Assembly (NCBI GenBank): GCA_039024555.1
Contig: JBCCQQ010000089.1
Coordinates: forward strand, 1 to 19,951
Length of the DNA: 19,951 nt
DNA from: Cyanobacteria bacterium P01_D01_bin.156
Lineage (GTDB): Bacteria; Cyanobacteriota; Cyanobacteriia; Phormidesmidales; Phormidesmidaceae
Direction of reading: 5' to 3'
The position numbers were made by a program, and so were the translations under genes. The notes under the pieces were generated by a model. That model saw only the letters and a program-made list of their open reading frames with translations. It was not told the origin of the DNA and ran no database searches. Positions 2,168-18,718 of this stretch are shown here, piece after piece (the first letter of the stretch is position 1; each line of letters begins with the position of its first letter).

Positions 2168-2788
2168 TTAATATTCAATCCCCATTTGCGCTGGAATACC
2201 CGCACTGATGGGATGCTTGATGCGGGTCATTTCTGTTACTAGATCCGCGATATCCATTAATTCTTCGGGAGCATAGCGTCCAGTACTGGCCACATGGCAA
2301 TGGTTGGGACGCGACTGAATACCGGTCAGCACCGCAGCTAGGTCTAGACGAGCCTTTTTAAGGGCAATGTGCAATTCATCTAGAACAACGAGAGAAATGT
2401 CAGGATCTGTAATCAGCTTTGTAGCGGTTTGCCAGGCTTGTTCTGCCATCTGTTGATCTTGAGCAGGGTCCTGAGTTTCCCAAGTAAACCCTCCACCAAG
2501 GGTATCAACACTGACTGGAAACCCTCGTTCCTTGAGTTTTTCTAACATGATGCGATCGCCATCGGGAAAGGCACTGTCATTTTTAATAAACTGCACAACA
2601 GCCACTCTCATATCGTGAGCCAGATGACGATAGACCAGATTCATAGCGCTGCTGGTTTTACCTTTACCTAGGCCGGTAAACAAAAGGTATAGGCCCTTCT
2701 CATTCCCTTCGCGATTGGCGCGAGCCTGATCTTTAGCCGCCTTGATTTTTTGAAGTCGAGTCTGTTCTTCTGGGGTGGGGTTGGTCAT
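2168..2788 (-). CDS. cobO: Cob(I)yrinic acid a,c-diamide adenosyltransferase (CobO/BtuR family)
   Basis: P-loop TGLGKGKTSSA, VVQFIK, GFTWETQD, LVVLDE, TGRYAP, ADLVTEM and KHP...AQMGIEY. Overlaps the cobN stop (ATGA, 2785-2788). Confidence 0.93.
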   Translation of the reverse strand: MTNPTPEEQTRLQKIKAAKDQARANREGNEKGLYLLFTGLGKGKTSSAMNLVYRHLAHDMRVAVVQFIKNDSAFPDGDRIMLEKLKERGFPVSVDTLGGGFTWETQDPAQDQQMAEQAWQTATKLITDPDISLVVLDELHIALKKARLDLAAVLTGIQSRPNHCHVASTGRYAPEELMDIADLVTEMTRIKHPISAGIPAQMGIEY

Positions 2789-5700
2789 AGTGTCTCCTCA
2801 ATATGAGCTTCTGCGTCTAACACGATTGCCCTCAGCTGTTCTAGCAGTTCGGGCGAAACCTGCTGCCATAATCCCCGCTGATGGGCTTCTAATAACCGTT
2901 CTGACATATCCCGTAACGCCCAAGGATTATGGGTCTGGATAAAGCGTTGAACGTTGTCGTCTAGAATATACGCTTCGGCAACGCCAGCATACATAAAATC
3001 AGCCACTGCGTGGGTGGTTGCATCATAGGCAAAGAGATAATCCACCGTTGCCGCCAGCTCAAAGGCTCCTTTATAGCCATGGCGCATCACACCAGCAATC
3101 CATTTAGGATTGACAACACGGGAACGATACACTCGGCTGATCTCCTCTGGTAAAGAACGAATACGGGGGGCCTGGGGACGGGAGTGATCGCCGAAATAGG
3201 CTGTGGGATTTTTACCCTGGGTAGCGCGTACAGCAGCAACTAATCCTCCTTGAAACTGGTAGTAGTCATCAGAGTCTAGTAGATCGTGTTCTCGATTATC
3301 TTGATTGTGCAACACAATTTGCAGCTGTCCTAGGCGTTGTTGAAACACATCGGGAACTGAGGCAGAGCGCAGGTTTCCCGATTGCTGTTCTGAGGGCGGG
3401 CCGGGCCGCCCGTAGGCATAGCAGCTCCAGTTGATATAGGCCTGGGCCAAGTCGCGATCGCTTGTCCAGTTTTGTGCCTCAATCAGTCCCTGTAGACCCG
3501 CCCCATAGGCACCTGGTTTAGAACCAAACACCCGATATTGGGCACGAATATCGGCCTCCTCGGGAGTAAACCCAAGGGACTGCCAATGATGGAGTTCTTG
3601 CTTCACTTGGGCCGCCAGGGGATTCATGTCGGCGGGTTCATCTAAGACCGCAACCGCTGCCACCGCTGAGTTGAATAAATCAATCAGATTGGGAAAAGCA
3701 TCCCGAAAGAAGCCTGAAATGCGCAATGTAACATCAACGCGGGGGCGCTGCAGCACCGACAGGGGTAGGATTTCAAAATCTATCACCCGGCGGCCCACCC
3801 CATCCCACACGGGGCGCACCCCCAAGAGGGCCAGAGCCTCAGCCATATCATCCCCACCCGTGCGCATGGTGGCGGTACCCCACATCGAGAGTCCTAGGGT
3901 TTTAGGATAGTCCCCCTGTTCCTGGGTGTAGCGCTCTACCAGATTTTCCGCCGCTCGACGGCCTACATCCCAGGCACTTTCCGTCGGCAGACCGCGAATA
4001 TCAACACTGTAGAAATTCCGCCCGGTGGGCAGCACATCGGCCCGGCCCCGAGTGGGCGCACCGGAGGAACCGCTGGGCACATAGCCTCCGTCTAAACCGT
4101 GGAGCAGATGGGTAATTTCCTCAGAAGTTTGCGCTAGTCTGGGCCATAACCACTGGCCGATCCAGAGAAGTTCTATGGTGGTTTTTGGACCAGCGATAGA
4201 GCTGCGATCGCTCACAGCGTTCTCGTCATTTAGCCCTTTAGCTAACAACCGTTCCACCCAGCACGTTGCCTGGTTTTCCAGCACGGCAACCGCATCCCCA
4301 ACGGTATAAATAGTGTGTTGAGATAGTTTGTCAGCTTGCAACAACGTATCAGGGATTTTCACATCTTGGATGATGGTCCCTAAATCTGTCGTGAGCGGAT
4401 CAAAGTGTAAATCCCACCCCCAATCTTCTGCGATCGCACGGGTCAGTCCCTGACGCCCCGGCCCCGGTTGACGTGCGATGGCTACGATTAAATCCCGCAG
4501 CTGTCTGCCATCGGGACACTGCCCTAGAATATGTAACCCGTCCCGAATTTGAGCTTCTTTGAGATCGCACAGGTAACCATCTGTTTGAGTAATAAATTCG
4601 CTAAAGGCGTTTGCATCTAAGGATGGATCCTGTTGTCGTAATCCATGCCCATTTTGCCCCAGTTGCAACTGGGGCAAAATGGGAGCCAGTCCTGGCAACA
4701 GACTGAGATCCTGTTGTAGATTTTCTTGGGTGACCAGGGAGCAGATGCGATCTCGAATCACAGGAAGTCTTTTTGGATCTAACGATTCCGCATCGTAATA
4801 TTCATCAATCAACGCTTCCAAGCGATGGAGTGAACCATAGAGCTCAGCCCGCGTTAGGGGAGGCGTCAGGTGATCCAAAATGACCGCCTGGGCTCGACGT
4901 TTGGCCTGGGTACCTTCCCCCGGATCGTTAACAATAAATGGATATAAGTGAGGCATGGGTCCCAGGGCTACCTCTGGATAACAATTTTCAGAAAGCGCCA
5001 GACTCTTACCTGGCAGCCATTCCAAATTGCCATGTTTACCCACGTGGACAACAGCCTGGGTACCCCACTGAAAACGCAGCCAGGCATAAAACGCCAGATA
5101 CCGATGGGTAGGTTCTAAATCCGGCGCATGGTAGTTCAACGATGGATCATCGTCATAGCCGCGAGAAGGTTGAATTCCTATAAAAATGTTGCCCAGCTGA
5201 ATCCCGGCAATGGGAATATCGGCATTGGGGTCCACATCTCCCCAGCGCTCAATGACACCCTGCTGTACGGATGCAGGCAATGTTTGGAAATATGCTTGGT
5301 AATCCTTAGCGGAAAGGGTTTGACGGACAGGGCGCATGTCTTGTCCCTCTGGATCATTAGTGACGCCCTGGGTGAGCCAGTTGATTAAATCTGCACTGGT
5401 GGCCGACAAGATTTCTTCTGGGGGAAGAGAGTCGAGTGTGTAGCCTGCTGAGTGGAGCGATCGCAAAATTTCCAGACAGCTAGCCGGAGTATCTAAACCC
5501 ACTCCATTGGCCAAACGACCATCTTTATTAGGATAGTTCGCCAAAATTAACGCCACTTTGCGTTGTTCAGGTGTCGTGCGTCGCAGCGTCACCCAATTAG
5601 CTGCCAAGTCAGCAACAAACTCAATCCGGTCAGGCTTTGGCTTATAGGCCATCACCGTTGTTTCTAGCTGAGGGTGGTCAGTTTGCACCGCCTTGAACGA

Positions 5701-6720
5701 TACCGCCCGGCTAATAATACGACCATCCACCTCCGGCAATGCCACATTCATCGCAATATCTCGGGGAGACAATCCTCGCCATTGTTGTTGCCACTGGTCT
5801 TCACTGCCACCGCTGAGCATGACCTGAATCACGGGCACATTCAGCCGTTGCCAAAAGTCTACCTGAGGAGATTCAGCACTTAACTTAGCGAGAGAGAACC
5901 CGGTGGTATTGAGAATCAGATCAATGCGCTGATTTTTGGTCAGTTCGGTTAGCAACTCAGACTGAATTTCTGGATTACGCAGCGAGGGTAAAAATAGCGG
6001 CAGTGGGGAGAGACCATGAGTCTTTAGTGCTTCGCAAAGGGCATCAATGACGCGGGTGTTGCCAGATAGATAGTGAGCGCGATAGAAGAAAATTGCCACC
6101 GTAGGCTGGGTTTCAGACGCAACAGGATTCTCTCCCCTTTTACCCTTCTCCTTTTCTCCCTTTCCCCCTTTCCACTCATACTTTCCCCACTGCGGCACAG
6201 CCTGCGGTTCAGGCACCTCATAGGAATAGCCCAAACAGGTTTGTGCTAGATATTGCAGTCCGTAGGCCAGGTTTTCTGCTCCACCTTCCACAAAGTAGTG
6301 CCAGAGTTGATCGGCTACCGTCAGGGGCACGGTGCCTAAACTACAGAGGACCGGATCGGGGCGATCATCGCCGGGTAATACCACCAGGCTAATGTTGTAA
6401 AGTTCTGCTATTTCCCGCAGACGTTCTAGGCCATAGCTCCAGTAGCTGCGTCCGCCCAGCAGCCTTACCATGATGACCTTCGCTTTGCTTAATACTGAGT
6501 CTACATAAGTGTCGATGCTGAGTTCTTGCTGTAGTTGAAGCAGGCTGGCGACTCGGAACTGTGGGAAGTCTTGGGGTAGTTGCGGCAGACTGGCGGCCAG
6601 GGTTTGGATTTCGGTATCGGCGGCGGTGATGATGATGATGGGGGCTGGGGTTTGATCTAGGATGATGACGCCGTCGGTGTCGGGGTTCCATCCTCCTGGT
6701 GTGGCGGCAATGCGATGCAT
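2785..6720 (-). CDS. cobN: Cobaltochelatase subunit CobN
   Basis: 1311 aa with MHRIAATPGGW, ALPEVDGRI, ANGVGLDTP, HVGKHGNLEWLPGK, NDPGEGTQAKRR, LPTGRNFY, RISGFFRD, HNQDNREHDLLDSDDYYQFQGG and NPKWIAGVMRHGYKGA. Confidence 0.98.
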   Translation of the reverse strand: MHRIAATPGGWNPDTDGVIILDQTPAPIIIITAADTEIQTLAASLPQLPQDFPQFRVASLLQLQQELSIDTYVDSVLSKAKVIMVRLLGGRSYWSYGLERLREIAELYNISLVVLPGDDRPDPVLCSLGTVPLTVADQLWHYFVEGGAENLAYGLQYLAQTCLGYSYEVPEPQAVPQWGKYEWKGGKGEKEKGKRGENPVASETQPTVAIFFYRAHYLSGNTRVIDALCEALKTHGLSPLPLFLPSLRNPEIQSELLTELTKNQRIDLILNTTGFSLAKLSAESPQVDFWQRLNVPVIQVMLSGGSEDQWQQQWRGLSPRDIAMNVALPEVDGRIISRAVSFKAVQTDHPQLETTVMAYKPKPDRIEFVADLAANWVTLRRTTPEQRKVALILANYPNKDGRLANGVGLDTPASCLEILRSLHSAGYTLDSLPPEEILSATSADLINWLTQGVTNDPEGQDMRPVRQTLSAKDYQAYFQTLPASVQQGVIERWGDVDPNADIPIAGIQLGNIFIGIQPSRGYDDDPSLNYHAPDLEPTHRYLAFYAWLRFQWGTQAVVHVGKHGNLEWLPGKSLALSENCYPEVALGPMPHLYPFIVNDPGEGTQAKRRAQAVILDHLTPPLTRAELYGSLHRLEALIDEYYDAESLDPKRLPVIRDRICSLVTQENLQQDLSLLPGLAPILPQLQLGQNGHGLRQQDPSLDANAFSEFITQTDGYLCDLKEAQIRDGLHILGQCPDGRQLRDLIVAIARQPGPGRQGLTRAIAEDWGWDLHFDPLTTDLGTIIQDVKIPDTLLQADKLSQHTIYTVGDAVAVLENQATCWVERLLAKGLNDENAVSDRSSIAGPKTTIELLWIGQWLWPRLAQTSEEITHLLHGLDGGYVPSGSSGAPTRGRADVLPTGRNFYSVDIRGLPTESAWDVGRRAAENLVERYTQEQGDYPKTLGLSMWGTATMRTGGDDMAEALALLGVRPVWDGVGRRVIDFEILPLSVLQRPRVDVTLRISGFFRDAFPNLIDLFNSAVAAVAVLDEPADMNPLAAQVKQELHHWQSLGFTPEEADIRAQYRVFGSKPGAYGAGLQGLIEAQNWTSDRDLAQAYINWSCYAYGRPGPPSEQQSGNLRSASVPDVFQQRLGQLQIVLHNQDNREHDLLDSDDYYQFQGGLVAAVRATQGKNPTAYFGDHSRPQAPRIRSLPEEISRVYRSRVVNPKWIAGVMRHGYKGAFELAATVDYLFAYDATTHAVADFMYAGVAEAYILDDNVQRFIQTHNPWALRDMSERLLEAHQRGLWQQVSPELLEQLRAIVLDAEAHIEETL
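6128..6177. repeat. Degenerate ~8-mer tandem repeat (TTCCCCCT/TTCTCCCT) inside cobN
   Basis: ttctctccccttttacccttctccttttctccctttccccctttccactc encodes the low-complexity peptide EWKGGKGEKEKGKRGE. The same unit (TTCCCCCT x2) occurs at ~13752-13767. Confidence 0.6.
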
Positions 6721-6871
6721 TCGGTCATGGATAGAGTTAAGTAATAAATACTACCACTTCTTACACTTCCGATTTTTTGTTGTGCTACTACGGTTGATTT
6801 TTCTGAAAAATGCACCGATTCAGGACTAATAGGAAAGGGATTTTTTAAAATAGATAGTGCCGAAATGAGTG

Positions 6872-6890
6872 TGCTATAACTTGGCAAGTT
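6872..6890 (+). promoter_or_regulatory. Candidate extended -10 promoter (TGcTATAAC) overlapped by palindrome AACTTG-G-CAAGTT
   Basis: TG at 6872-6873 and TATAAC at 6875-6880, ~30 nt before ATG 6910. A perfect 6-bp-arm palindrome spans 6878-6890. Confidence 0.4.
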
Positions 6891-6909
6891 GTAACTAAAC
6901 AAATCAAAA

Positions 6910-7269
6910 ATGGAATTATCCGCATTATCTGAACAAGCGGTAAAGATAGCACTGTGGTCACTTGAAAAGGCTTCTGGGGGAGCTTTGTCAAAAGTTGGTT
7001 CGGAAATCTTGAATCTCCTTGTAAAACAATTCCAGGGAAAGCTTGATATCGGAGAAAGTCAACCAAAAGTTCTGGAAGCTGAAGTTGTTAGTGAAGCAGA
7101 GTGGAATCAAGAATTTCGCAAGGAACTTGAGAAGCTAGTAAATCAGTACCAGCAAATACAAAATAACAGCTCTGTTTCACAAAATACTGAATCAGGTGTA
7201 AACATAAATGCTGAGAATAACTCGGGCACGGTAATAGGTCAGCAGATAGACAACCGGCTTTTTCGTTAA
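6910..7269 (+). CDS. Small hypothetical protein (helical N-terminus, Q/N/S-rich tail); probable N-terminal module of a frameshift fusion
   Basis: 119-aa ATG ORF in AT-rich DNA. It ends SQNTESGVNINAENNSGTVIGQQIDNRLFR with the sequence CTT TTT CGT TAA. Confidence 0.8.
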   Translation: MELSALSEQAVKIALWSLEKASGGALSKVGSEILNLLVKQFQGKLDIGESQPKVLEAEVVSEAEWNQEFRKELEKLVNQYQQIQNNSSVSQNTESGVNINAENNSGTVIGQQIDNRLFR

Positions 7270-8752
7270 CCAGTTCTTTCTGGGTTTAAGTAACTCGGAC
7301 TTAAAGTCTAGCAGTGGCTTTTTCAGTCGATTACTTAACTACATCAAAGTAATTGCTTTTCTGGTATGTGCACTCATCTGCTGGTTTTTGTTTGGCTGGC
7401 TAGCTGATTACTCTTTTCCCTTTGGACAAGCTATAGATTTAGTATTCGCCTGCTTTAAAGGGACTGTTGCATCAAGAATTAATAACTTGCAGCAAAAGTT
7501 GCAAAAGACAGACATACATTCTCAGTCTGATCGTAAGAAGCAGGTTCAAACTCTCACCAAATTAGAGTCTCAAGCCTGGCTGTATGAGGGTGTCTTAGAG
7601 CGTCTTGGCGCAGATCCATCTGTAAATCATGAAAAAGTAGCAAGAACGCTTGAGGCATTAGAGTATAAGAGAACTACGATCCTCCAAGATTTAGAACCAC
7701 GGCGATCTGTCAAATACCGCATTTTTTCAAGTTTGCAAGACTCCACTCGTGCTGTTTTAGCTAGCCAAGCGGAGAAAGACTATGAACAGCTTCAAAAAAT
7801 TACAACTAACTTAGTCCTTTTTGCAAGAAATCAGCAACCTTCACAAATTATTCTTTCAGAAATTGTTGACAAGTTAGCTAAAGAAATAACAAAAAAATCT
7901 GGTCAGATTAGCCCTTATCGTCTCCGTCTTGCTTACAGACTCGATGAGTTGATGAATATTTTAGAATCAAAGCTAATTCTCAATCCTAAAGACTTAAGAA
8001 CTTCAAGTAGCTACCACTCAAAAAATCGTGAATTACGCTCGCGCTTAAATACACTGTCTAGAAAATTTGATAGCTTACTTGTAGCTAAGCAAAGAGAGAA
8101 GAAAGAATTAGATATACGTCTGCAACAAATTTCTAGTCTTTCAAGAAAGATTTCTGAACTTCATAGAGAGATATCCAATCGCGATACGGACATAGATACT
8201 TTACAGACTAATATTCAAGATCTTACGAAAACAGTTCAAGATAAACAGAATCAGATAACTAATTTTGAGGGTTTGGTATCGAATCTAAAGGATGCTGCTG
8301 AAAAAAATACCGAATTTGATCAGAATCAAAAAAGTTATATCGATGAAATACAGGCTAAATTATTGCGACTGAGTCAACAGAATTCAGTGTTAGAGAGAAA
8401 AATTAAAGATTTCTCTATGTCCGTTCAGAAGAAAGATAATGAGGTTGAAGAGTTAAGAAATGAGAAGTCTCAATTAAGCATTCAAAAAAACGAATTGGAC
8501 AGACAATACCAAATTTTATATCAAAATTATCAGAAACAAAAAGCTGAAATTGATACGTTAAGGCAAGAAAATCATCAGATTAATCTCTCAAAGGATTCTC
8601 AAGCTAGCAAGTCGGAAACAATTAAGAAAGAAATCTCAGTAGAGGAATATCAAAGAATTTCGAATAAAAGTGATTATACTTATGTAAAAGCACATTATCG
8701 AAAAGGAAGACCCGTCAAGGCACATTACCGAAGATTACCAAAAAAATATTAA
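7250..8752 (+). CDS. Membrane-anchored coiled-coil protein; reading frame is open from 7250 with no ATG/GTG/TTG before TTG 7388
   Basis: After TAG 7247-7249 the frame reads TTGFFVNQFFLGLSNSDLKSSSGFFSRLLNYIKVIAFLVCALICWFLFGWLA.... The track's TTG start falls inside the hydrophobic helix. A long heptad-rich region and a basic C-terminal VKAHYR x2 tail follow. The true start is uncertain. Confidence 0.75.
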   Translation, partial: TTGFFVNQFFLGLSNSDLKSSSGFFSRLLNYIKVIAFLVCALICWFLFGWLADYSFPFGQAIDLVFACFKGTVASRINNLQQKLQKTDIHSQSDRKKQVQTLTKLESQAWLYEGVLERLGADPSVNHEKVARTLEALEYKRTTILQDLEPRRSVKYRIFSSLQDSTRAVLASQAEKDYEQLQKITTNLVLFARNQQPSQIILSEIVDKLAKEITKKSGQISPYRLRLAYRLDELMNILESKLILNPKDLRTSSSYHSKNRELRSRLNTLSRKFDSLLVAKQREKKELDIRLQQISSLSRKISELHREISNRDTDIDTLQTNIQDLTKTVQDKQNQITNFEGLVSNLKDAAEKNTEFDQNQKSYIDEIQAKLLRLSQQNSVLERKIKDFSMSVQKKDNEVEELRNEKSQLSIQKNELDRQYQILYQNYQKQKAEIDTLRQENHQINLSKDSQASKSETIKKEISVEEYQRISNKSDYTYVKAHYRKGRPVKAHYRRLPKKY

Positions 8753-8792
8753 TGAGATGGACAAACAGAAGCGGTAGTAAGACTAAATCCAG

Positions 8793-8816
8793 GTACGGTG
8801 CGTTCGTGACGCATGG
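8793..8816 (+). repeat. Degenerate REP-like hairpin
   Basis: GTAC-GG-TGCGT-TCGTG-ACGCA-TGG: a GTAG-like tetranucleotide followed by a palindrome. Confidence 0.55.
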
Positions 8817-8838
8817 TTTACGGCATTTTCAACACTGT

Positions 8839-8978
8839 TTATTCATCAATCCATAAGAGATTTTCGGGACTCTCCTCTTGACACCAGTAAGGTGGATAAA
8901 TAGCCTCTTCAACGAACTGTGCACACTGAAACGTTTCCACAGCAGTGGACTTTCGAATAATCCACGGTGGACTAGATT
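8839..8978 (-). pseudogene. 3' remnant of a REP-associated tyrosine transposase (RAYT-like), frameshifted
   Basis: The minus strand reads NLVHRGLFESPLLWKRFSVH, then in a shifted frame QFVEEAIYPPYWCQEESPENLLWIDE*. This resembles the RAYT C-terminus NPV.HGLV..P.DW.YSSFHRFV..G.YP.DW. It is flanked by inverted REP hairpins. Confidence 0.6.
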
Positions 8979-8985
8979 GCAAGGT

Positions 8986-9009
8986 GGTGCGTTAGGGAAC
9001 GCACCCGAC
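8986..9009 (-). repeat. REP-like hairpin
   Basis: Plus strand GGTGCGTT-AGGG-AACGCACC-CGAC forms a perfect 8-bp stem. The minus strand reads GTCG-GGTGCGTT-CCCT-AACGCACC. Confidence 0.7.
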
Positions 9010-9013
9010 ACTA

Positions 9014-9526
9014 TTACCTAGCCAAACGACGACGTACCATCGGATGTTCAATCAAAACCGGACCTTCCGGCAAAAACCGGGGAGGATAATTAGACTTTTT
9101 ACCAAAAGCCTTCAAATTACCAATCGCTAAAGGCTTTTTCAACTTTTCCAAATCCTTCAACAGCCAAAAAACTGCCCAGTTAGGCTTATCATTGGTGGTC
9201 GATTCAGGTCGATGAATCGCTTTACCCGGATAGCGACCGCGACGGGAATGCACCTGCTTAATATAGGTCGCCTTCCAAGTCGCCTGGGGATTTAGTGGAG
9301 GATTATCCGCATGGGACGCATAGATATACACATCAGCCAGACGCTCCTTACGCAGGGCATCAGCTTGGCCAAATACTTCAAACGCATTGCTCCCCAAAGC
9401 CACGATGGGATGGGTATCCAGGGCTTCATCATCTAACTGCTGGGTAATCGTATCCAACCCCGAGAATAGATGATGCTCCGGTACGGGGGCCAAAATAGCA
9501 AAGTTTTTAGTATTCGTTATATCCAC
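9014..9526 (-). CDS. Hypothetical protein, possibly PUA/ASCH/EVE-like fold
   Basis: 170-aa GTG-start ORF with globular composition. The pattern VYIYAS...ATWKAT...AVFWLLKDLEKLKKPLAIGNL...FLPEGPVLI suggests the fold, which is an inference only. Confidence 0.7.
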   Translation of the reverse strand: MDITNTKNFAILAPVPEHHLFSGLDTITQQLDDEALDTHPIVALGSNAFEVFGQADALRKERLADVYIYASHADNPPLNPQATWKATYIKQVHSRRGRYPGKAIHRPESTTNDKPNWAVFWLLKDLEKLKKPLAIGNLKAFGKKSNYPPRFLPEGPVLIEHPMVRRRLAR

Positions 9527-9659
9527 AGACAGTTTCCCTTAAGGCCAGTTTTCTAACCTAACAAGTTATGAGGCGTCAGGGATGGCTAATTAGAAAATTG
9601 CTGTCATCTTCCATGGAGTCGGTAAGAACCTGCAGCTCATGCTGGAAAAGCCGACGGGT

Positions 9660-11180
9660 TCAATCTAACGTCAGGCCAACCCACTGACGAATCAGATCCA
9701 GATCGCAATACTCTTCTAGGGTATCGGCCATTTGGTCATAGAGTTGAAACTGTTGTTGTTGCCAGGAGATCGCCCCCGGCTGATAGTCTTGCACATTCGC
9801 AAGCTGGGCTAATGTTTGGCGCAGGGTGGTGGATTCAAACAAGCCGTGGAGATAGGTACCCCACACGTGGCTTTGACTGTGCTCCCAGGTGTGAATGCAG
9901 TGGATGCCTGCGGGCCGCTGGGTGCCGTTCAGCTCAATGGTTAGTAATGGCTCCGTGGATGTGTGCGAAGTGAGATTAGCAGCAACGGCATGGGTCTGCC
10001 CCATGTGGATTTCATAGGCTTGCCAGGTTTCAGATTTGCCCTGATGGGATGAAATCGCCTTCACCTGCCGCACCTCCTTAGAATTAATAAACTCCGTTGC
10101 CATGGGCAACAGCCCCAATCCCGGCACCTCACCCGCCAGTCCCGCATAGCCATTCGGGTCCGAGAGAGACTGCCCCAACATCTGATAGCCGCCGCAGATA
10201 CCCACAATGGGAACACTTCGTTGAGCCGCCTGTTGAATCGCATCTGCTAAGCCTGTCTGCCGCAGCCACTCCAGATCTTGCAGAGTATTTTTACTACCGG
10301 GCAAAATTATCGCTCGTGCATCTGCTAACTCCTCCGGTGTCGTCACCCAGCAGGTACGAATACCCGTATCCAGCTGCCAGGGTTGACTATCCTGGGAATT
10401 CGACACCCGAGGAAACCGAATCCAGGCAAATTTAGCCCCACTGCCCGATTCTTCTGCTTCGGCACACAAACTGTCTTCGCTTTCTGGCTGCAGATGGCTA
10501 CGGTAGGGTAAGGTGCCCAGGTAGGGAAAATCTGGCAGATGCTTGGCAAAATGCTCACCAGCCGTATCAAACAACCTCAGATCGCCCCGAAATTTATTGA
10601 CAATAAACCCCAGACCCAGGGACTTTGCCGGGTCTGGTATCAACGTATGGGTGCCAATAATTTGAGAAAAAATCCCCCCCCGCTCAATATCGCCCACCAG
10701 CAGCCAGCGCCCCTGCAAATACTGAATCGGTCGCAGGTTAACAATATCCCGATGCATCAAGTTCAGCTCCACCGGGCTACCAGCACCTTCTAGCAGCAAA
10801 ACATCACAGCGATCGCGCCAAGATTCCAGCGTCTGTTCCACCACCTGCCAGATATCCTCAATGTGCTGGTAATAGTCCCCCGCCCGAATATGCTGCTTTG
10901 GCTCACCCAACAACACCAGCTGAGACGTGCCATTTCCCGACGGCTTCAGCAATACCGGATTATGCTCCGCTACCGGACGCACTCCACAGGCTGCTGCCTG
11001 GGCCGCCTGGGCTCGACCTATTTCCCCACCTTCCAGCGTGACGTAGGAATTATTGGACATATTCTGCGCTTTAAAAGGCACCACATTTACCCCCTGCCGC
11101 CGCAACCAGGCCCCCAGGGCCGTAACGATCCAGCTTTTACCAGCATTAGACGAAGTACCAAGGACAGACAGTGCTTTCAT
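9660..11180 (-). CDS. cobQ: Cobyric acid synthase (CobQ/CbiP)
   Basis: GTSSNAGKS, PFKAQNMSNNS, GEIGRAQ, NPVLLKP, EGAGSPVELNL, DIERGG, NKFRGD, ILPGSKNT, glutaminase Cys in GICGGYQMLG and His in GTYLHGLF. Confidence 0.97.
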   Translation of the reverse strand: MKALSVLGTSSNAGKSWIVTALGAWLRRQGVNVVPFKAQNMSNNSYVTLEGGEIGRAQAAQAAACGVRPVAEHNPVLLKPSGNGTSQLVLLGEPKQHIRAGDYYQHIEDIWQVVEQTLESWRDRCDVLLLEGAGSPVELNLMHRDIVNLRPIQYLQGRWLLVGDIERGGIFSQIIGTHTLIPDPAKSLGLGFIVNKFRGDLRLFDTAGEHFAKHLPDFPYLGTLPYRSHLQPESEDSLCAEAEESGSGAKFAWIRFPRVSNSQDSQPWQLDTGIRTCWVTTPEELADARAIILPGSKNTLQDLEWLRQTGLADAIQQAAQRSVPIVGICGGYQMLGQSLSDPNGYAGLAGEVPGLGLLPMATEFINSKEVRQVKAISSHQGKSETWQAYEIHMGQTHAVAANLTSHTSTEPLLTIELNGTQRPAGIHCIHTWEHSQSHVWGTYLHGLFESTTLRQTLAQLANVQDYQPGAISWQQQQFQLYDQMADTLEEYCDLDLIRQWVGLTLD

Positions 11181-11236
11181 GGGGGGATGGGGTACAGGGC
11201 TTTGCCCTTCTCGTAGAGTTGGGGTGAAAGACTACT

Positions 11237-12211
11237 ATGACTGAATTTGTGAGCTATGCGGCCATTGTGCTGATCGGTGCAGCAGGGCTGGACTTTCTGG
11301 TGGGTGACCCGTGGCACTGGCCCCACCCGGTGCAGGGGATGGGCTGGTTGATTCAGCGGTATAGCAACCTGGCTTTTAAGACGACACAATCAGCAACGGT
11401 GATGAAGGGTCTCGGGGTGTTACTGACGGTGCTATTGGTTGGGGGCAGCGCTGTTGTGGGTTGGGGTTTGGTTGCGATCGCCCATCAGTTCAATTACTGG
11501 GCTGGCCTTAGTTTAGAAATCATCTTAGTGGCCTCCTGTTTTGCTGGTCGCAGCCTGCGAGATGCGGCAGAAGATGTGCTGGCACCATTGAATCAGAACG
11601 ATTTAGTAGAGGCACGCCAGCGCATGGGCCGCTATGTCGGTCGTGATACCCAGGAGCTGGATCAACCTGAAATTCTCAGGGCGGTGTTTGAAACCGTAGC
11701 TGAGAATAGCGTCGATGGCATTATGGGGCCGTTATTCTATGCTCTGGTGGGGGCGGCCACACCATTAGGGAGTGCGTCGATGGCCTTGGCGTATAAAGCC
11801 GCCAGCACCCTAGACTCCATGGTGGGCTATAAAGAAGCCCCCTATACCCACATCGGCTGGTGCAGCGCCAAGTTCGAAGATGCCTTGACCTGGCTACCCT
11901 GTCGTTTAACGGTGCTCACCCTGGCGCTACTGTCTAGAAAACCTCGCACAGTCATTGCCCTTTGTCGGAGAGATGCCGACGCAGACCCTAGCCCTAACTC
12001 CGGATGGAGTGAATGTGCCTATGCCGCTAGCTTGGGAGTGCAGGTAGGTGGAAAAAATGTCTACAAAGGTGTGGCTAAGGTGAAACCCTTGATGGGCGAT
12101 CCGGTGCGGGAGATTACGCCGAATGTGATTCAAGAGTGTTTACGGTTAAATCGGATTTGTTTTTTACTCTGGCTAGGATTAGGAGTTTTTCTGCTTTGGA
12201 TTTTAGAGTAA
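11237..12211 (+). CDS. cbiB: Adenosylcobinamide-phosphate synthase (CbiB; called CobD in the aerobic nomenclature)
   Basis: LDFLVGDPWHWPHPV, VGRDT, ETVAENSVDG, YKAASTLDSMVGY and SPNSGWSECAYA, with multiple TM helices. Confidence 0.97.
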   Translation: MTEFVSYAAIVLIGAAGLDFLVGDPWHWPHPVQGMGWLIQRYSNLAFKTTQSATVMKGLGVLLTVLLVGGSAVVGWGLVAIAHQFNYWAGLSLEIILVASCFAGRSLRDAAEDVLAPLNQNDLVEARQRMGRYVGRDTQELDQPEILRAVFETVAENSVDGIMGPLFYALVGAATPLGSASMALAYKAASTLDSMVGYKEAPYTHIGWCSAKFEDALTWLPCRLTVLTLALLSRKPRTVIALCRRDADADPSPNSGWSECAYAASLGVQVGGKNVYKGVAKVKPLMGDPVREITPNVIQECLRLNRICFLLWLGLGVFLLWILE

Positions 12212-12246
12212 AGAATTTCATTGAGACGTACAATTACATTCCCTCT

Positions 12247-12496
12247 TGGGAGCAGGGGCGTTTCGTGTGTATCAGAGAAAATCTGTCAGGTTTATTATTT
12301 CGTTTATACTTAATCGAGATATGATTGAAGGGAAGCAAAACCGGTTGCTTGGGGTCCCTCCGAGTTCCCCAAACCCCCATGGCTAGGGCCGGGAGGCCGC
12401 CCTAGGACCCAGCCTACTGGGTTGTCCTTAATTGCATTAAAGTAGGGGTTACGGCGGGGGCGATTAATCAGGTTGTCGCATTGTTGTTCGGCCCAC
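12247..12496. repeat. Dispersed structured repeat, copy 1 (core 12337-12496)
   Basis: The core aligns without gaps to 16361-16520 at 147/160 identity. A more diverged upstream extension (ggcg.ttc.tgtg.a.c.gagaaaatctgt.agg.tta...aatcgagat) is also shared. Confidence 0.9.
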
Positions 12497-12612
12497 TTTA
12501 TTCCAATTTTTAACTCATACAAGAGAATATGTTTTGTACTTCGCCAACACATTCTACGATGGGTTCTTGAACGCAATACTTTAGCAATTTGTTGTTGAAT
12601 ATCTGAAACTGA

Positions 12613-13701
12613 ATGGTTGCTTCTCCTTCTCTATCTGGTTCATGTCGTCCTACCCATGGTGGTAATCGTAATTGGGCCGCTCAGCTTGCCAATTGCAAAC
12701 CAGAAGAGATTCTAGACTTTTCTGCCAGCATTAACCCGTTAGGTCCGCCTCAATCAGTGCTAATAGCACTGACACAACATCTTCAGAACCTAACGGCCTA
12801 TCCTGATCCTAACTATACTCAGCTGCGGTCAGCCCTGAGCGACTTTCACAATCTGCCGATGGACTGGATTCTTCCTGGTAATGGAGCTGCAGAATTATTA
12901 ACCTGGGTGGGTCGAGAACTAGCTCAGCTGGAAGCTACTTATCTGGTAACACCTGCTTTTGCTGATTACCAACGGAGTTTGAACGCTTTTAAGGCCAAGG
13001 TTATTCCTGTGCCAATGGATTTGGAAACAGTGCCGCCCAAGGCAACGATTACAGCATCCGCAAACTGTGGACTGCTGCTGAATAACCCCCACAACCCAAC
13101 GGGTACGCTCACCCGACGAGATGATTTAATCCCCTATCTTGAACAATTTTCTCTGGTGGTAGTGGATGAAGCGTTTATGGATTTTTTGCCACCGGAACAG
13201 CAACAGAGTTTATTGGAGATGATTCTGGATTTTCCAAACTTGATTGTGTTGCGATCTCTAACCAAGTTCTACAGTCTCCCTGGTCTGCGGCTGGGCTACG
13301 CCATTGGCCATCCCGACTATCTAAAACGATGGCAGCAATGGCGAGACCCGTGGCCGGTGAATACCTTGGCGGAAATGGCTGCGATCGCAGCCCTCAAAGA
13401 TAACCCATTTCAGCAACAAACCTGGGATTGGCTCCCCCCTAGCCGTGATGCTCTGATTGCATGTCTGCAAAAACTGCCAGGACTTAACCCTTTACCGGGT
13501 GCTGCCAATTTTCTGTTGGTCAAAACAGAGGTTCCCAGCCCTCAACTCCAACGAGAACTACTCAAATCTCATCAAATTCTGATTCGCGACTGCCTGAGTT
13601 TTCCAGGATTAGGAGAGAATTATTTTCGTATTGCTGTTCGTCTTGCTGAAGAGAATAATCGATTATTAGCCGCCCTTGCTCAGGCAACGTTAAGAATCTA
13701 A
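12613..13701 (+). CDS. cobD: L-threonine-O-3-phosphate decarboxylase (PLP-dependent, CobD)
   Basis: HGGN, LDFSASINPLGPP, YPDP, GNGAAEL, NNPHNPTG, VVDEAFMDF and the PLP-lysine motif LRSLTKFYSLPGLRLGY; cob-cluster context. Confidence 0.93.
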   Translation: MVASPSLSGSCRPTHGGNRNWAAQLANCKPEEILDFSASINPLGPPQSVLIALTQHLQNLTAYPDPNYTQLRSALSDFHNLPMDWILPGNGAAELLTWVGRELAQLEATYLVTPAFADYQRSLNAFKAKVIPVPMDLETVPPKATITASANCGLLLNNPHNPTGTLTRRDDLIPYLEQFSLVVVDEAFMDFLPPEQQQSLLEMILDFPNLIVLRSLTKFYSLPGLRLGYAIGHPDYLKRWQQWRDPWPVNTLAEMAAIAALKDNPFQQQTWDWLPPSRDALIACLQKLPGLNPLPGAANFLLVKTEVPSPQLQRELLKSHQILIRDCLSFPGLGENYFRIAVRLAEENNRLLAALAQATLRI

Positions 13702-13706
13702 TGTTC

Positions 13707-13730
13707 GGTGCGTTAATAACGGCACCCTAC
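13707..13730 (-). repeat. REP element (GTAG type)
   Basis: The minus strand reads GTAG-GGTGCCGTT-ATT-AACGCACC, in the cobD-cobH spacer. Confidence 0.7.
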
Positions 13731-13772
13731 GTCCTGCCTCCTCATCTTTTCTTCCCCCTTTCCCCCTTCTCC

Positions 13773-14378
13773 ATGCACCCCATCACCGCCGAAAGCTTTG
13801 CCATCATCGATCGAGAAATTGGTCCCCACAACTGGCCTCCCGAGGAATATGCCATCATCCGTCGAGCCATCCATTCCACTGCTGACTTTGAACTGCTGAA
13901 TTTATTTGAATTTAGTGACGGTGCTGTGGCAGCAGGGATAGAAGCTCTTAGACAACAAGCGCCTGTGGTTGTCGATGTGCGTATGGTACAAATGGGCATT
14001 ACAGGTGTACTGAAAAGAATGGGCCATACTTCAATTGTCTGTGCCTTAGATTATGTTCCAGAAGATTTTGTGCCCAGCGCAGACAGCACCACCCGCACCG
14101 CTGCAGGCATGTTAGCCCTAACGCAACACTATTCCACTGGCATTTTTGTTGTTGGTAATGCACCTACAGCGTTACTTGCTCTGGTAGAACAGATTCGATT
14201 AGGACGGGTAAAACCGGCCTTGGTAATCGGTGTTCCTGTGGGGTTTGTTGCAGTTGAAGAAGCTAAACAGGCATTGGCTAAGGTGGATGTTCCCCAAATT
14301 CGAGTGCAGGGACGAAAAGGAGGTTCACCCGTGGCTGCAGCTATTGTCAATGCCCTGGCCTATTTGGTTCAAGCCTGA
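13773..14378 (+). CDS. cobH: Precorrin-8X/cobalt-precorrin-8 methylmutase (CobH/CbiC)
   Basis: MHPITAESFAIIDREIG, RRAIHSTADF, TRTAAG, VGNAPTAL, IGVPVGFV and GRKGGSPVAAAIVNAL. ATG 13773 is preferred because 13701-13772 is a REP plus a pyrimidine repeat. Confidence 0.95.
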   Translation: MHPITAESFAIIDREIGPHNWPPEEYAIIRRAIHSTADFELLNLFEFSDGAVAAGIEALRQQAPVVVDVRMVQMGITGVLKRMGHTSIVCALDYVPEDFVPSADSTTRTAAGMLALTQHYSTGIFVVGNAPTALLALVEQIRLGRVKPALVIGVPVGFVAVEEAKQALAKVDVPQIRVQGRKGGSPVAAAIVNALAYLVQA

Positions 14379-14389
14379 GCGCACCCGTA

Positions 14390-14989
14390 CTACCCTTTGA
14401 CACAGTGCTTCAAAATTCCGAGAATTTTACCCACATCATTCAAAAAATATTCCGTCAGATCAACCTCTACAACTGCATCCCGCAACCGCAAAAATTGCCA
14501 AATACTCCCCGTCGTAATCACTCCATAAACCGCTGGAATTTCATTGTCACGCTGTTGATTAAACCGCTGGGCTGCTACCATTTCTGCAATACACTGCCCG
14601 AACCCTGACTTAATGTTGTCATTTTTGGCTTCTACAACCGTAATCACTGGGGCCTGAATAAACAACTGCTCCGGCGACTGACTAATCAAAAAATCACAGA
14701 ATCCTGTTAGTCCGTTGGCTGCATCTACATTAAATTCTCGACCTGAAAAAAGACTAATCCGGTCGGTAAGCTGACGTTTTAATTCAAACAAAATTGGCGC
14801 AATAATGAACTCCGAACGCGACTTTTCAGTACCAATCGCTAATGCTACAGGACTGTAATCTGTCAATGCCTGTTTGAGAAAGTCACCATAGGCAATGGGG
14901 GGCACATCCGCAAACAAATTCATTCGATCCTGGATACTCACCTTCAGGACGCTACCAACGCTATCAATGTTGAATTGATCGTAGGGCAT
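14390..14989 (-). CDS. Hypothetical protein, PD-(D/E)XK nuclease-like (HsdR N-terminal-like cyanobacterial family)
   Basis: TEKSRSEFIIAPIL, LTGFCDFLIS, VVEAK, GFGQCIAEMVAAQRFN and YGVITTGSIWQFL. ATG 14989 (MPYDQF) is preferred. Confidence 0.8.
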   Translation of the reverse strand: MPYDQFNIDSVGSVLKVSIQDRMNLFADVPPIAYGDFLKQALTDYSPVALAIGTEKSRSEFIIAPILFELKRQLTDRISLFSGREFNVDAANGLTGFCDFLISQSPEQLFIQAPVITVVEAKNDNIKSGFGQCIAEMVAAQRFNQQRDNEIPAVYGVITTGSIWQFLRLRDAVVEVDLTEYFLNDVGKILGILKHCVKG

Positions 14990-15041
14990 GCTTAAGACAA
15001 GGGGGGTGAATAATTGGGGCAACACTGACCATAATGACAGG

Positions 15042-16196
15042 TTAAGTTGGAGGCGGTATTGTGGCTATTTTAGCGGATGTATTCTGGGCAATAATATTTC
15101 CTTTGCGATCGCACAGCACCACTCCCACCTCTACCCGCACATTGGCATACTTCTGAATATAGGCTTGGGCGCGATCGCTAATTTGTCTTGCCAACAACCC
15201 AAATACCGGATCTGCCAACTTTGCTTCTATCAGCAGTTCATGGGCTGCCGCTGCAGTAGGAGCTGCTAGCACGGCACGAATTACCGCCAGACAATCAATT
15301 GCTTCCGGCATCTCCTCCACTTGAGCAATCGCCGCTGCCAGTATCGGCAGTTTGCCATCCGCCACATGACTCGACGTGTTGAAAATCCCCCCTGCCAGCT
15401 TAACCAGCTTGCCGTGATAGCCCAGCAACACAACAGATTCTGCCCCCCGTACCCCTGCTTCCACCAGCATCGGCCCCAACCAGTTACCCGTCTGCACAAT
15501 ATGTTGCGAACCAATCCCTAATCGTTGCGCCGTACGCTGACCATTGTGACCAATGCAAAACACCAGATGCGGCGTTATCTGCACAGCCTTTTGTAAATTC
15601 GCTCGATAGTCTTCTAGCTGGTCAGTAGATGAGTGGGGTTGGGAAATGCCACTGGTGCCCAGGAGAGCTAGCCCCTCCAAAATGCCAAAGGCCTCATTGG
15701 ATGTACGCTGGGCTAACCGACGCCCTTCTGGCAGGATAATGCGAACTGTGGCCTGATGCTGTGCTGGAATTAGGGGACGAATATTGATATCGAACAGCTT
15801 GCGGGCATAGGCATAGAAGGCGGGTTCTCCGGTGACGGTATGACCGATGCCTTCACCGGCTTCTAAAGTTAGATTGTTGTTGGTCTCCGCATTGATTTGT
15901 TCTAGATTTACCCAGGCCCAAATGGGGGTATTGCGGGTTAAGTCGAGATTATCGCCGGGGTCGCTGAGGCAGATGCCCAGGGCAGTAGTGGTGGTGAGAC
16001 TGGCGACTTGTTGGATGATAATGTCAGCATTACCAGGAGATAGGTCAATAGTGATTTGTGTTGCTTGTGGGTTATCTGTTTGGAGAGTAACCGATCTATT
16101 GTCTTTGTCTTCACTCTTTTGGGCAAGCAAATGGATCAGGGCAGCTTTAGCGGCAGCAACAGCAAAGACTGGTAGTGTGTAGCCAGCTCGGGCCAT
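15042..16196 (-). CDS. cbiD: Cobalt-precorrin-5B C1-methyltransferase CbiD
   Basis: MARAGYTLPVFA, SDPGDNLDLTRNT, AGEGIG, LAQRTSNEAFGILEGLALLGTSG and GYHGKLVKLAGGIFNTSSHVAD. Confidence 0.96.
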   Translation of the reverse strand: MARAGYTLPVFAVAAAKAALIHLLAQKSEDKDNRSVTLQTDNPQATQITIDLSPGNADIIIQQVASLTTTTALGICLSDPGDNLDLTRNTPIWAWVNLEQINAETNNNLTLEAGEGIGHTVTGEPAFYAYARKLFDINIRPLIPAQHQATVRIILPEGRRLAQRTSNEAFGILEGLALLGTSGISQPHSSTDQLEDYRANLQKAVQITPHLVFCIGHNGQRTAQRLGIGSQHIVQTGNWLGPMLVEAGVRGAESVVLLGYHGKLVKLAGGIFNTSSHVADGKLPILAAAIAQVEEMPEAIDCLAVIRAVLAAPTAAAAHELLIEAKLADPVFGLLARQISDRAQAYIQKYANVRVEVGVVLCDRKGNIIAQNTSAKIATIPPPT

Positions 16197-16269
16197 AGGG
16201 TCTCCTTGTGTTGTGTTTGATGGCTTAGTTTTGGGGTATCTAGGTTAAAAAGACAAGGATTTGGGCCAC

Positions 16270-16525
16270 TGGAGGCAGAGGCGCTTCATGTGCACCCGAG
16301 AAAATCTGTAAGGCTTATGACTTTGTGTATGCTGAATCGAGATTATGCTCGCAAAGAGCTAAAACCGGTTGCTTGGGGCCCCTCCGAGTTCCCCACACCC
16401 CCATGGCTAGGGCCGGTAGGCCGCCCTAGGACCCAGCCTACTGAGTTGTCTTCAATTGCATTACAGTAGGGGTTACGGCGGGGACGATTAGTCAGGTTAT
16501 CGAATTGTTGTTTGGCCTACCTCCA
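16270..16525. repeat. Dispersed structured repeat, copy 2 (core 16361-16520)
   Basis: Direct repeat of 12247-12496. It is bounded by an imperfect 9-bp inverted repeat, TGGAGGCAG (16270-16278) / CTACCTCCA (16517-16525). Confidence 0.9.
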
Positions 16526-16571
16526 AGCAGAAGCGGCAACGATTGTATCCGTTTTGGTTTGGTTTGTGTGT

Positions 16572-17327
16572 TTAACGATTTTTCATTGTTGGATAAAGGG
16601 TTTGCTGACAAAATTCAAGGACTCTCTCTAAGTTATGGGTTTGTTGGGAATAGGCTATTGCAGGACGGGCAATGACTAATAGTCTCACTCCTAATGCTTT
16701 TGCGGCGGCTAATTTTATGGGTACGCCGCCAGGTACGCCGCTGGCTTTGGTGATGACTGTATCCACACTGAGTTTTTGCCAGAGGGTTTGTTCTGCTAGG
16801 GCATTGGTGGGGGAGCGATCGCAAATTAGCTGCGCGGGTGCAAATCCAGCCTGGATGGCTTGGTCTCTGGCCGTTGGCAAGATTCTGGCCCAGAGATGCG
16901 CCCGCTGTTGCCAGGGTTGAAATCTATGCAGGGCTTTGATGCCCAGGGTGAGTAAGACACGACGATTTTCTAGATAGGTAGGCTGTAATAGGGTGTTTAA
17001 ATCCGGTACGGATTCGGCGGGGGGCTCTAGGGACGTCGTCTGTCGTTCAAACCGTAGGTAGGGCAAGCCAGTGGCTATGGCCTGTTTGGAAATTTCGGTG
17101 GCAAAGGGATGGGAGGCATCGACAATGGCGCGAATGCGGTGTTGTTGAATTAGGGATTGCATATCCGCAAGTGATAAGGCCCCTGACTGTATGGGACCGG
17201 GTAACCCTTCATAGAGTCGGGCGGCGGTGGGGGAAACCACCGTGACTAGCCACGGCAGCCCTTGCTGAGTTAAGTGCTGGGCAAGGGCTCGACTTTCGCT
17301 GGTTCCCCCAATGAGCCAGATGGTCAC
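16572..17327 (-). CDS. cobK: Precorrin-6A/cobalt-precorrin-6A reductase (CobK/CbiJ)
   Basis: IWLIGGTSESR, IVDASHPFA, YLRFER, VLLTLG, ARILP, VITKASG..GG...K and VIARP. The GTG start overlaps the cobM stop (GTGA). Confidence 0.95.
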   Translation of the reverse strand: MTIWLIGGTSESRALAQHLTQQGLPWLVTVVSPTAARLYEGLPGPIQSGALSLADMQSLIQQHRIRAIVDASHPFATEISKQAIATGLPYLRFERQTTSLEPPAESVPDLNTLLQPTYLENRRVLLTLGIKALHRFQPWQQRAHLWARILPTARDQAIQAGFAPAQLICDRSPTNALAEQTLWQKLSVDTVITKASGVPGGVPIKLAAAKALGVRLLVIARPAIAYSQQTHNLERVLEFCQQTLYPTMKNR

Positions 17328-18115
17328 GCGTTTGCTTTTGCTAAATGGGGCCGGAAGAGATGGCTGTGGCCTGGATTGTATAGCTGCGATCGCGCCTCGG
17401 CTTGGGCTGCCAATGCCGGACTAATCAGGTACATGACGGTACGATCGTGGCCTGCTTCTTTGGTCATAGCCGCCATGGTGTCCAAACTCCCCAGACGAAT
17501 CTCTTCATCGGGCCAGCCCAGTCGATAACAAAGGGCAATGGGGGTATCTGATGGATAGTGGGTGAGCAGTTTATCCTGGGCATCGTTGGCATGGCGTGCG
17601 CTGAGATACAGACAGAGGGAGGCACGGTGAGCGGCCAGGGAGGCTAAGTCCTCATCCCCTGGTACATTGGTGCGGCCCTGGACTCGTGTGAGGATAATAC
17701 TCTGCACCAGTTGGGGCACGGTTAGCTCTGCCTTTAGACGGGCTGCGGCCAGTTGAAACGCACTTACCCCCGGCACAATTTCAAACGGGAGCTGATGCTT
17801 GAGTAAAAAGGCGGTGAGTTCATGGAGGGCACCGTACAGACAGGGATCGCCATCTTGTAACCGCACCACTCGCTTTCCCTGATTTACCCGTTCTTGTAGT
17901 AGCGGCAACCAAGTTTCTAGGGTATGGGACCGGGTATCAATGGTTTCTGCTGACTGGCACCATTGCAGCATTTGCTCGGGTACCAGCGACCCGGTGTAAA
18001 AAACGGTATCTGCCGCTGCTAAAAGTGTCTGACCGCGAACGGTAATCAGGTCTGGGGCACCGGGACCGGCTCCGATAATATGGACTGGAAATTGTGAGGT
18101 GATGGATTGGCTCAT
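17324..18115 (-). CDS. cobM: Precorrin-4/cobalt-precorrin-4 C11-methyltransferase (CobM/CbiF)
   Basis: IGAGPGAPDLITVRG, YTGSLVP, VVRLQDGDPCLYGA, VPGVSAF, ELTVPQLVQSIILTR, LCLYLS, WPDE and RSQLY. Confidence 0.96.
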   Translation of the reverse strand: MSQSITSQFPVHIIGAGPGAPDLITVRGQTLLAAADTVFYTGSLVPEQMLQWCQSAETIDTRSHTLETWLPLLQERVNQGKRVVRLQDGDPCLYGALHELTAFLLKHQLPFEIVPGVSAFQLAAARLKAELTVPQLVQSIILTRVQGRTNVPGDEDLASLAAHRASLCLYLSARHANDAQDKLLTHYPSDTPIALCYRLGWPDEEIRLGSLDTMAAMTKEAGHDRTVMYLISPALAAQAEARSQLYNPGHSHLFRPHLAKANA

Positions 18116-18466: not shown

Positions 18467-18718
18467 ATGCACCAATTAACCATCCACTACCCAGAAACCT
18501 TCCCCGACGTTGTTGGCAGTAGCCAAGAACAATTCGAGCAAGAAGCCAAATGGGCCATGGCCGTCAAACTATTTGAGATGAAACGCCTCTCCTCCGGCAT
18601 GGCCGCCACCCTGATCAATGTTGATCGCGTCACCTTTCTCCTCAAACTTGCTGACTATGGTGTCCCCATGATCGACCTCACCGAAGACGAACTGCTCTCA
18701 GACCTCGCCAATGCCTAG
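18467..18718 (+). CDS. UPF0175-family protein (putative antitoxin)
   Basis: 83 aa; AMAVKLFEMKRLSSGMAATLINVDRVTFL HTH-like signature and an acidic tail. Overlaps the next gene by 8 nt. Confidence 0.9.
   Translation: MHQLTIHYPETFPDVVGSSQEQFEQEAKWAMAVKLFEMKRLSSGMAATLINVDRVTFLLKLADYGVPMIDLTEDELLSDLANA

Follow-up and report, generated by a model that had tools for sequence, protein, structure and literature searches.

Organization of the locus

The window (the whole 19,951-nucleotide stretch of DNA analysed here) carries, in a variable slot between cobN and cobQ, two overlapping reading frames on the forward strand, the second of which is start-less. The features are as follows.

2785..6720, reverse strand: cobN, left flank of the variable slot (TIGR02257 above cut-off)
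6910..7269, forward strand: ORF1, 119-aa zero-frame product, putative Bell/HetE-N-like small protein (56 homologs, 55-72% identity)
6910..7170, forward strand: helical domain of ORF1, residues 1-87, four predicted helices (AlphaFold2 model, pLDDT 72)
7171..7260, forward strand: N/Q/G/V-rich tail, candidate amyloid signalling motif, common to both products (composition; low-confidence coil)
7247..7249, forward strand: TAG closing the +1 frame upstream, which bounds the place of entry (sequence)
7258..7269, forward strand: putative shift site CTT [TTT CGT] TAA, with TTTCG (7261-7265) as invariant core
7262..8752, forward strand: ORF2, start-less +1 frame, 496 codons counted from TTC
7271..7336, forward strand: ORF2 codons 4-25, coding constraint ahead of any start codon (pN/pS 0.31)
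7337..7405, forward strand: predicted single transmembrane helix, then a conserved FGW-A-Y-FP stretch (hydropathy peak 2.6)
7421..7972, forward strand: conserved helical domain of no known family (no significant match in Pfam, NCBIfam, PDB or BFVD)
8006..8602, forward strand: predicted long coiled coil of variable length (only weak SMC-like matches)
8624..8749, forward strand: small basic β-strand C-terminal module (no Pfam match)
9660..11180, reverse strand: cobQ, right flank of the variable slot (TIGR00313 above cut-off)

Re-reading of the sequence agrees with the preliminary description of both frames. ORF1 (6910-7269) encodes 119 aa and ends CGG CTT TTT CGT TAA, and the +1 frame, closed by the TAG at 7247-7249, is open from 7250 as far as 8752. 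Its earliest ATG, GTG or TTG is the TTG at 7388, 46 codons in and within the sole hydrophobic helix; a CTG is present at 7280. Fusion of the two frames at the site would give the proposed protein of 118 + 495 = 613 aa. The +1 frame opens 3-10 codons upstream of the shift site in most relatives. A promoter and terminator scan at the locus gave results at chance level.

Start-less long +1 overlaps occur at 5 of the 6972 ORFs of the window's genome, and one of the five, ORF1, ends in TTT CG. The arrangement is above chance, as it is unique among the 6972 ORFs and is found in 72/72 of the relative rows that end in Phe-Arg (see below); it is neither a chance occurrence nor an assembly error. The run of five T residues had been singled out for a check against reads, and one Logan contig (depth 15.5) matches the window there, being possibly the window's own source and not independent.

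Conservation of the putative shift site

DNA rows were counted if their ORF1-relative score was at least 40 bits, which gave 78 rows, duplicates included. Genome sampling contributed 12 of 401 genomes of the phylum, 30 of 401 of another order (weak matches included), 17 of 173 of the window's own order, 20 of 251 of one family and five named genomes; metagenome searches contributed 22 loci. A Phe-Arg end is present in 72 of the 78 rows, and it is encoded by TTT CGN in 72/72, never with TTC or AGR, so that the predicted invariance at synonymous positions is borne out. The Arg codon is CGT in 62 rows, CGG in six, CGA in two and CGC in two. These loci are kin and the counts are of related sequences: the 72 rows collapse to 51 groups at 90% identity, 16 at 60% and 13 at 50%. 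The six rows lacking Phe-Arg comprise two internal deletions and four rows of in-frame fusions to another domain, the full-length ones of which end in a ferredoxin. A search run after the TTT CGN rule had been fixed yielded 16 conforming cases out of 16, with 13 new loci. The start-less +1 ORF predicted to follow the site in relatives is present in all 72 Phe-Arg-ending rows.

The preliminary description had anticipated conservation of TTT CGN together with the stop codon; the first part stands and the second does not. Among the 51 representatives the stop is TAA (34), TGA (11) or TAG (6) and sits 0-4 codons past CGN; thus, it is not part of the conserved signal. At one locus (L018), a 9-base insertion or duplication at the stop, directly past the site, leaves the +1 frame intact.

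At the protein level, the suggestion that similar small cyanobacterial proteins end in Phe-Arg proved correct for 57/57 proteins of the near search (query included, Phe-Arg scored within five residues of the stop) and for 27 of 33 distant proteins of 100-200 aa. In an alignment with a mean identity of 32%, five columns are at least 90% conserved, Phe118 and Arg119 being two of them; the five TTTCG positions are 100% conserved, with flanking positions at 88% or below. As controls, TTC occurs in 11-53% of loci at nine other conserved Phe columns versus 0/43 at the site, and TTT CGN is used at 14 of the 39 Phe-Arg gene ends of the window's genome. The Arg codon alone proves little, since CGN also prevails almost without exception at some other conserved Arg columns (27/27 and 26/27) and changes from CGN to AGR are constrained. 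A codon-usage probability for TTT CGN (1e-4 for 8 clusters) ignores ancestry and is not relied on.

The codon preceding TTT in 43 representatives is TTT in 32 and another codon in 11, with TCC in none. The representatives' aligned sites show no conserved hairpin or Shine-Dalgarno-like stimulator nearby. Features of the prfB type are absent from the site, namely an A-site stop (CGN follows UUU) and conserved anti-Shine-Dalgarno pairing. CGU is not rare in the window's genome, where it makes up 25% of Arg codons.

Coding evidence in the +1 frame and the ORF2 protein

In 20 intact main-clade loci, codons 4-25 of the +1 frame have a pN/pS of 0.31 versus 0.15-0.40 for the remaining ORF2, and their third positions are the most variable (0.54 versus 0.21 at the second). 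This substitution pattern indicates that the first 25 codons of the frame are under purifying selection. In 27 intact loci, ATG, GTG or TTG occurs at none of the first 23 aligned columns and in at most 9/27 at any of the first 60. The CTG at 7280 and the TTG at 7388, named earlier as places where independent initiation might be mapped, are not conserved across relatives.

A Tyr...Trp..Gly membrane motif lies in the +1 frame in all 46 of the 51 representatives that have it, at a spacing from the site that takes ten values between 24 and 38 codons. No ATG, GTG or TTG precedes the motif in 39 of these 46 loci, and in seven such a codon occurs at scattered places; a start codon upstream, within the overlap, is found at four loci. 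Three of the five representatives lacking the motif are broken just past the site and two have another partner. Of the 51 representatives, 11 have a +1 ORF of less than 300 aa, mostly through decay, with some cases of a short second partner or a contig end; ORF1 is mostly intact.

As had been foreseen, an in-frame fused homolog exists (P0083, 669 aa, a single record), in which both parts are joined and Phe-Arg is lacking; its alignment to ORF2 begins at ORF2's first codons. The expectation that the +1 partner might vary was also met by an unrelated second family behind the same site in L105, L177 and L178. These second partners (L105:816-1445, L177:1922-2584 and L178:852-1505) are soluble proteins of 210-221 aa with weak similarity to phycobilisome proteins (E 8e-4 at best).

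The C-terminal β-strand module of ORF2 is replaced in other relatives by a His/Cys-rich version. Searches with ORF2 returned zero matches in PDB or BFVD at E 0.001, no usable match in the ESM Atlas and only coiled-coil noise in NCBIfam and PADLOC. By these searches the ORF2 partner does not belong to the NLRs, and no known sensor matches it.

Probable mechanism of the shift

Judged from the sequence, UUU_CGN is a programmed +1 ribosomal frameshift site with a probability of roughly 85%. This supports the frameshift interpretation of the preliminary description, with two refinements: the stop lies outside the signal, and the short protein is probably Bell-like. Most ribosomes would read ORF1 and terminate to give the 119-aa soluble protein. 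In a minority, tRNA-Phe(GAA) in the P site on UUU, with CGN in the A site, would re-pair to UUC, and these ribosomes would continue in the +1 frame to give the 613-aa protein, whose N-terminal domain and tail are those of the short product. A tRNA scan shows that the window's genome encodes tRNA-Phe(GAA) and the Arg tRNAs ACG, CCG and TCT. The same scan called one tRNA Gly-ACC, unusual in bacteria, and Ile-GAT and Ala-TGC are absent, probably as a result of unassembled rRNA operons.

Precedents have been described. In PA-X, shifting is lost when UUU_CGU is changed to UUC_AGA, there is a preference for CGN and the efficiency is ~1.3% (PMC3498833); the vertebrate +1 site of PLEKHM2, UCC_UUU_CGG, operates at ~1% efficiency (PMC11451614); and UUU_Ynn is reported to be +1-prone in bacteria, as in the YopN-TyeA case (PMC5009743). 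By analogy to the ~1% of PA-X and PLEKHM2, the shift efficiency at the present site is presumably low.

The length of the T run at the site decides between slippage routes. It is six T in 34 of the 51 representatives, five in the window and three in 16. The same two products could arise by -2 ribosomal slippage or by RNA-polymerase slippage on the T5/T6 run, and the prevalence of such runs favours this, as does the Phe codon ahead of the site, which is TTT in 32/32 cases; we nevertheless consider it improbable. The three-T sites are preceded by AAC, TAC, AAA, CAG, ACG, TTC and others, the C and G past the run are invariant, and runs of 3, 5 or 6 T fall short of the more than eight that known transcriptional slippage requires according to PMC3711429. 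Since three-T sites permit neither polymerase slippage nor -2 re-pairing, both are excluded as the general mechanism, which leaves P-site slippage from UUU to UUC as the single route shared by all sites. At T5 and T6 sites, the window's T5 included, -2 or tandem slippage may add to the +1 shift.

Less probable still is independent translation of ORF2, from a near-cognate codon or by re-initiation after the ORF1 stop, with Phe-Arg kept for protein function. The tight coupling of the genes, the ATH at column 28 in 17/27 loci and the TTG or ATG ahead of Tyr27 in 7/46 would suit it. Yet coding constraint begins at codon 4, upstream of every candidate start, no candidate start codon is conserved, Phe-Arg is lost in fused homologs, and synonymous codons are never seen at the site. 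The chance of an assembly error or a recent inactivating mutation of one gene is negligible: a fused homolog (P0083) does exist and the window was assembled from a metagenome-like source, but the contig is identical at the T5 run and the same break recurs in 72 rows, which span many genera and families and reach as low as ~16-30% identity. Conservation of the break rules this explanation out.

Properties of the small protein

ORF1 encodes 119 aa with an acidic residue at position 2 (Glu2). The monomer modelled with AlphaFold2 consists of four helices (residues 3-87) and an unfolded low-confidence tail. The tail is enriched in N (3.8x), Q (2.7x), V (2.1x) and G (1.8x), with I at only 1.2x, and depleted in K, P and L. 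For comparison, Dyrka et al. (bioRxiv 10.1101/2020.01.06.895854) describe BASS motifs as biased towards N, Q, G, V and I and away from K, P and L, and their Bell definition is a ~100-aa helical domain in a protein of 120-140 aa with an acidic residue at position 2-3.

Structural and profile searches gave weak leads. The best structural match of the model (VIA, 48,161 chains) is the ZAR1 CC domain, with a Z score of 6.4 and an rmsd of 3.4 over 71 aligned residues, a weak match below the counting level; no Bell or HeLo structure is among the listed VIA matches. An ESM Atlas feature match to HetE-N (PF20701, 0.93) is likewise a weak lead. A Pfam scan of 34 ORF1 family members gave zero matches, as did comparison of ORF1 with PDB sequences and by Foldseek. 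ORF1 has no strongly hydrophobic N-terminal helix, with no 19-residue window above 1.2. On these weak leads, ORF1 probably encodes a Bell-like effector whose tail is amyloid-like.

ORF1 has no paralog in the window's genome, searches of phages, plasmids and IMG/VR gave zero matches, and longer proteins sought with alignment A2 were not found (weak evidence). At L021:912-1890, the ORF1 helical domain is tandemly duplicated ahead of the tail and shift site. At L014/L019, L061, L062 and P0062, an ORF1-like domain with its tail continues, without a change of frame, into a helical domain and a 2Fe-2S ferredoxin.

Related loci and their proposed modes of expression

A second profile, A4, was built from weak relatives (hhalign to A2 95.9%, E 6e-9). 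It matched 60 of 301 genomes, and 70 of its 77 matches were examined; the other seven were three that had been covered before, a second copy and three weak matches. Beyond the stop, the same frame holds a long ORF lacking an ATG within 15 codons at 36 of the 70 loci (L067, L069-L075, L077-L087, L089, L090, L113, L114, L117-L119, L121-L123, L126, L131, L133, L134, L137, L139 and L144). The stop contexts at these loci are TGA-C (28), TAG-C (5), TGA-A (2) and TGA-G (1); TGA-C is the rarest stop context in the window's genome (2.9%). The TGA-C and TAG-C stops, at 33 of the 36 loci, are candidates for programmed readthrough in bacteria. CUG initiation is the rival for this in-frame class: a CTG follows in 16/36 loci, but other codons do in 20/36.

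At eight further loci of the 70 the long ORF, encoding an NLR, lies in the -1 frame (L063, which is L027:1905-1917; L064, which is L037; L109, L110, L132, L140, L076 and L120). AAAAAG is present at six of these, as A_AAA_AAG, G_GGA_AAG at one, and one (L120) is unclear, with no clear heptamer. An ordinary ATG partner is found at 8/70 loci and no such partner at 18/70. The 15 partners that were scanned all belong to the NB-ARC, NACHT or nSTAND1 proteins, and most of them have TPRs. The two-gene pairs whose partner has its own ATG are L092, L106-L108, L115, L124, L125, L127, L135 and L148.

The tail motif distinguishes these arrangements. At a score of 35, and with L029 and L106 added to the count, a copy is present in 8 of 9 partners that have their own ATG, and in the scored two-gene pairs it is matched at the partner's N-terminus. 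Recoded partners have none: 0/47 (+1), 0/8 (-1) and 0/37 (readthrough). The motif thus appears either to be duplicated across two genes or to be present once in a recoded gene.

Genomic neighbourhood

The cassette has a GC content of 35-39% versus 47% for the window's genome. The slot past cobN holds different genes in the eight congeners examined, and ORF1 is found in 0/21 congeners. Downstream, positions 9014-9526 (reverse strand) encode a conserved 170-aa protein of no known family, homologs of which lie close to this slot in some congeners (L155, L156), and positions 8840-8980 contain a short repeated element with matches elsewhere in the same and related genomes. A cobalamin gene cluster spans positions 2168-18115 and is interrupted by small accessory genes; it includes, besides cobN and cobQ, what we take to be cobO, cobD, cobC, cobH, cbiD, cobK and cobM. 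Among the accessory genes are one that is Uma2-like (14390-15025) and a pair (18467-19211). Next to the cassette in L001, L002, L003 and L009 lies what is presumably a BrnT/BrnA-like toxin-antitoxin pair.

Functional model

By analogy to known pairs, we lean slightly towards a function in which recoding replaces motif duplication in an amyloid-signalling defence pair. The 613-aa protein would comprise the N-terminal domain, tail, membrane helix, helical domain, coiled coil and variable C-terminal module, and this rare long form would serve as a membrane-anchored sensor that clusters upon a cue. The clustered long form would nucleate amyloid assembly of the abundant short form through its identical tail; the short form would then expose or release its N-terminal helix, so that the cell is killed or arrested, as in Bab/Agp and HET-S. 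Recoding would stand in for the duplicated motif required by canonical Bell/NLR gene pairs. Presence of the effector domain on the long form as well may explain the rarity and frequent loss of that form.

A frameshift that is real but serves another purpose is possible, if rather unlikely: the short protein could be a chaperone or antitoxin of the long one, or the two could form a membrane-anchored filament of fixed ratio. The lack of an NTPase in the partner, the absence of a PADLOC or Pfam defence match, the weak fold match and the ferredoxin on some fusions are in line with such roles; the size of ORF1, its acidic residue 2, its tail composition, the HetE-N lead, the kinship with small proteins of canonical motif-matched NLR pairs, and the patchy spread and frequent decay argue for the amyloid switch instead.

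Extended to the related loci, the amyloid-signalling model would describe a large unannotated class of cyanobacterial innate-immune genes, each recoded so as to encode both a Bell-like amyloid effector and the matching sensor. Three interchangeable recoding signals (UUU_CGN for +1, A_AAA_AAG-type heptamers for -1 and UGA-C/UAG-C for readthrough) would set the effector-to-sensor ratio and ensure a perfect motif match, and the window would represent the +1 branch, in which the membrane sensor family is new. We give this wider proposal an even chance.

Significance

Firth et al. 2012 left open the use of UUU_CGN sites in cellular genes, and in the literature searched the cases that followed are vertebrate. 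Few bacterial chromosomal genes are known to have a conserved programmed frameshift. Recoding of the present family was not found in the literature searched, though subscription papers and closed supplements may hold a description. The words frameshift and readthrough are absent from the main texts of Dyrka et al., the Bab/Agp paper, PMC8195603 and PMC7889193, and the searchable supplements of PMC3711429 gave no match. Each element is known elsewhere, and the combination looks undescribed.

The dozens of natural bacterial site variants make the mechanism of the site testable in a tractable host. If the functional model is true, amyloid immune signalling can rely on recoding in place of motif duplication, and the annotations of many cyanobacterial NLR and membrane proteins give them wrong starts and omit the effector domain. 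If the recoded class is real, it would be the first case in which bacteria make conserved use of the influenza-type site, and it would add a widespread bacterial instance of programmed stop readthrough.

Comparison with known systems

The -1 shifts of chlD (magnesium chelatase), dnaX and csoS2, as presented in PMC5009743 and PMC3711429, also yield short and long forms with a common N-terminus, and A_AAA_AAG occurs in sister loci of the present family; the direction, motif and protein family differ from those of the +1 locus. The prfB site (CUU_UGA) and YopN-TyeA (UUU_Ynn), described in PMC5009743, share with the present proposal P-site slippage in the +1 direction. In contrast to these, the present site has no A-site stop and no conserved Shine-Dalgarno element, and it has a conserved CGN and a start-less second frame.

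The Bell/BASS-NLR pairs (Dyrka et al.; Bab/Agp, 10.1101/2024.11.07.622273) resemble the locus in several respects, as far as those accounts describe them: a small helical protein of ~120 aa with an acidic residue 2, as in ORF1, a C-terminal N/Q/G/V-rich motif, a tightly linked partner and occurrence in cyanobacteria. Relatives form canonical motif-matched pairs. A five-helix bundle with a hydrophobic first helix is a further Bell criterion; the pLDDT-72 model of ORF1 has four helices. Unlike the NLR of such pairs, the partner here lacks a start codon, a motif copy (0/47) and an NTPase, has membrane and coiled-coil regions instead, and would gain the motif and effector domain by recoding. As the partner is no NLR and carries no motif copy, the locus is not a strict Bell/BASS member; in the model it would act like such a pair.

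The PA-X type (influenza A UCC_UUU_CGU, amalgaviruses, PLEKHM2 and the predicted ASXL1) shares with the present site the UUU_C re-pairing core, the preference for CGN among CNN codons and, in the accounts of PMC3498833 and PMC11451614, the lack of an obvious stimulator. The present case differs in belonging to a bacterial chromosomal family, in a preceding codon that is mostly UUU and never UCC among those tallied, in a stop 0-4 codons on, and in that the shifted product is the long one.
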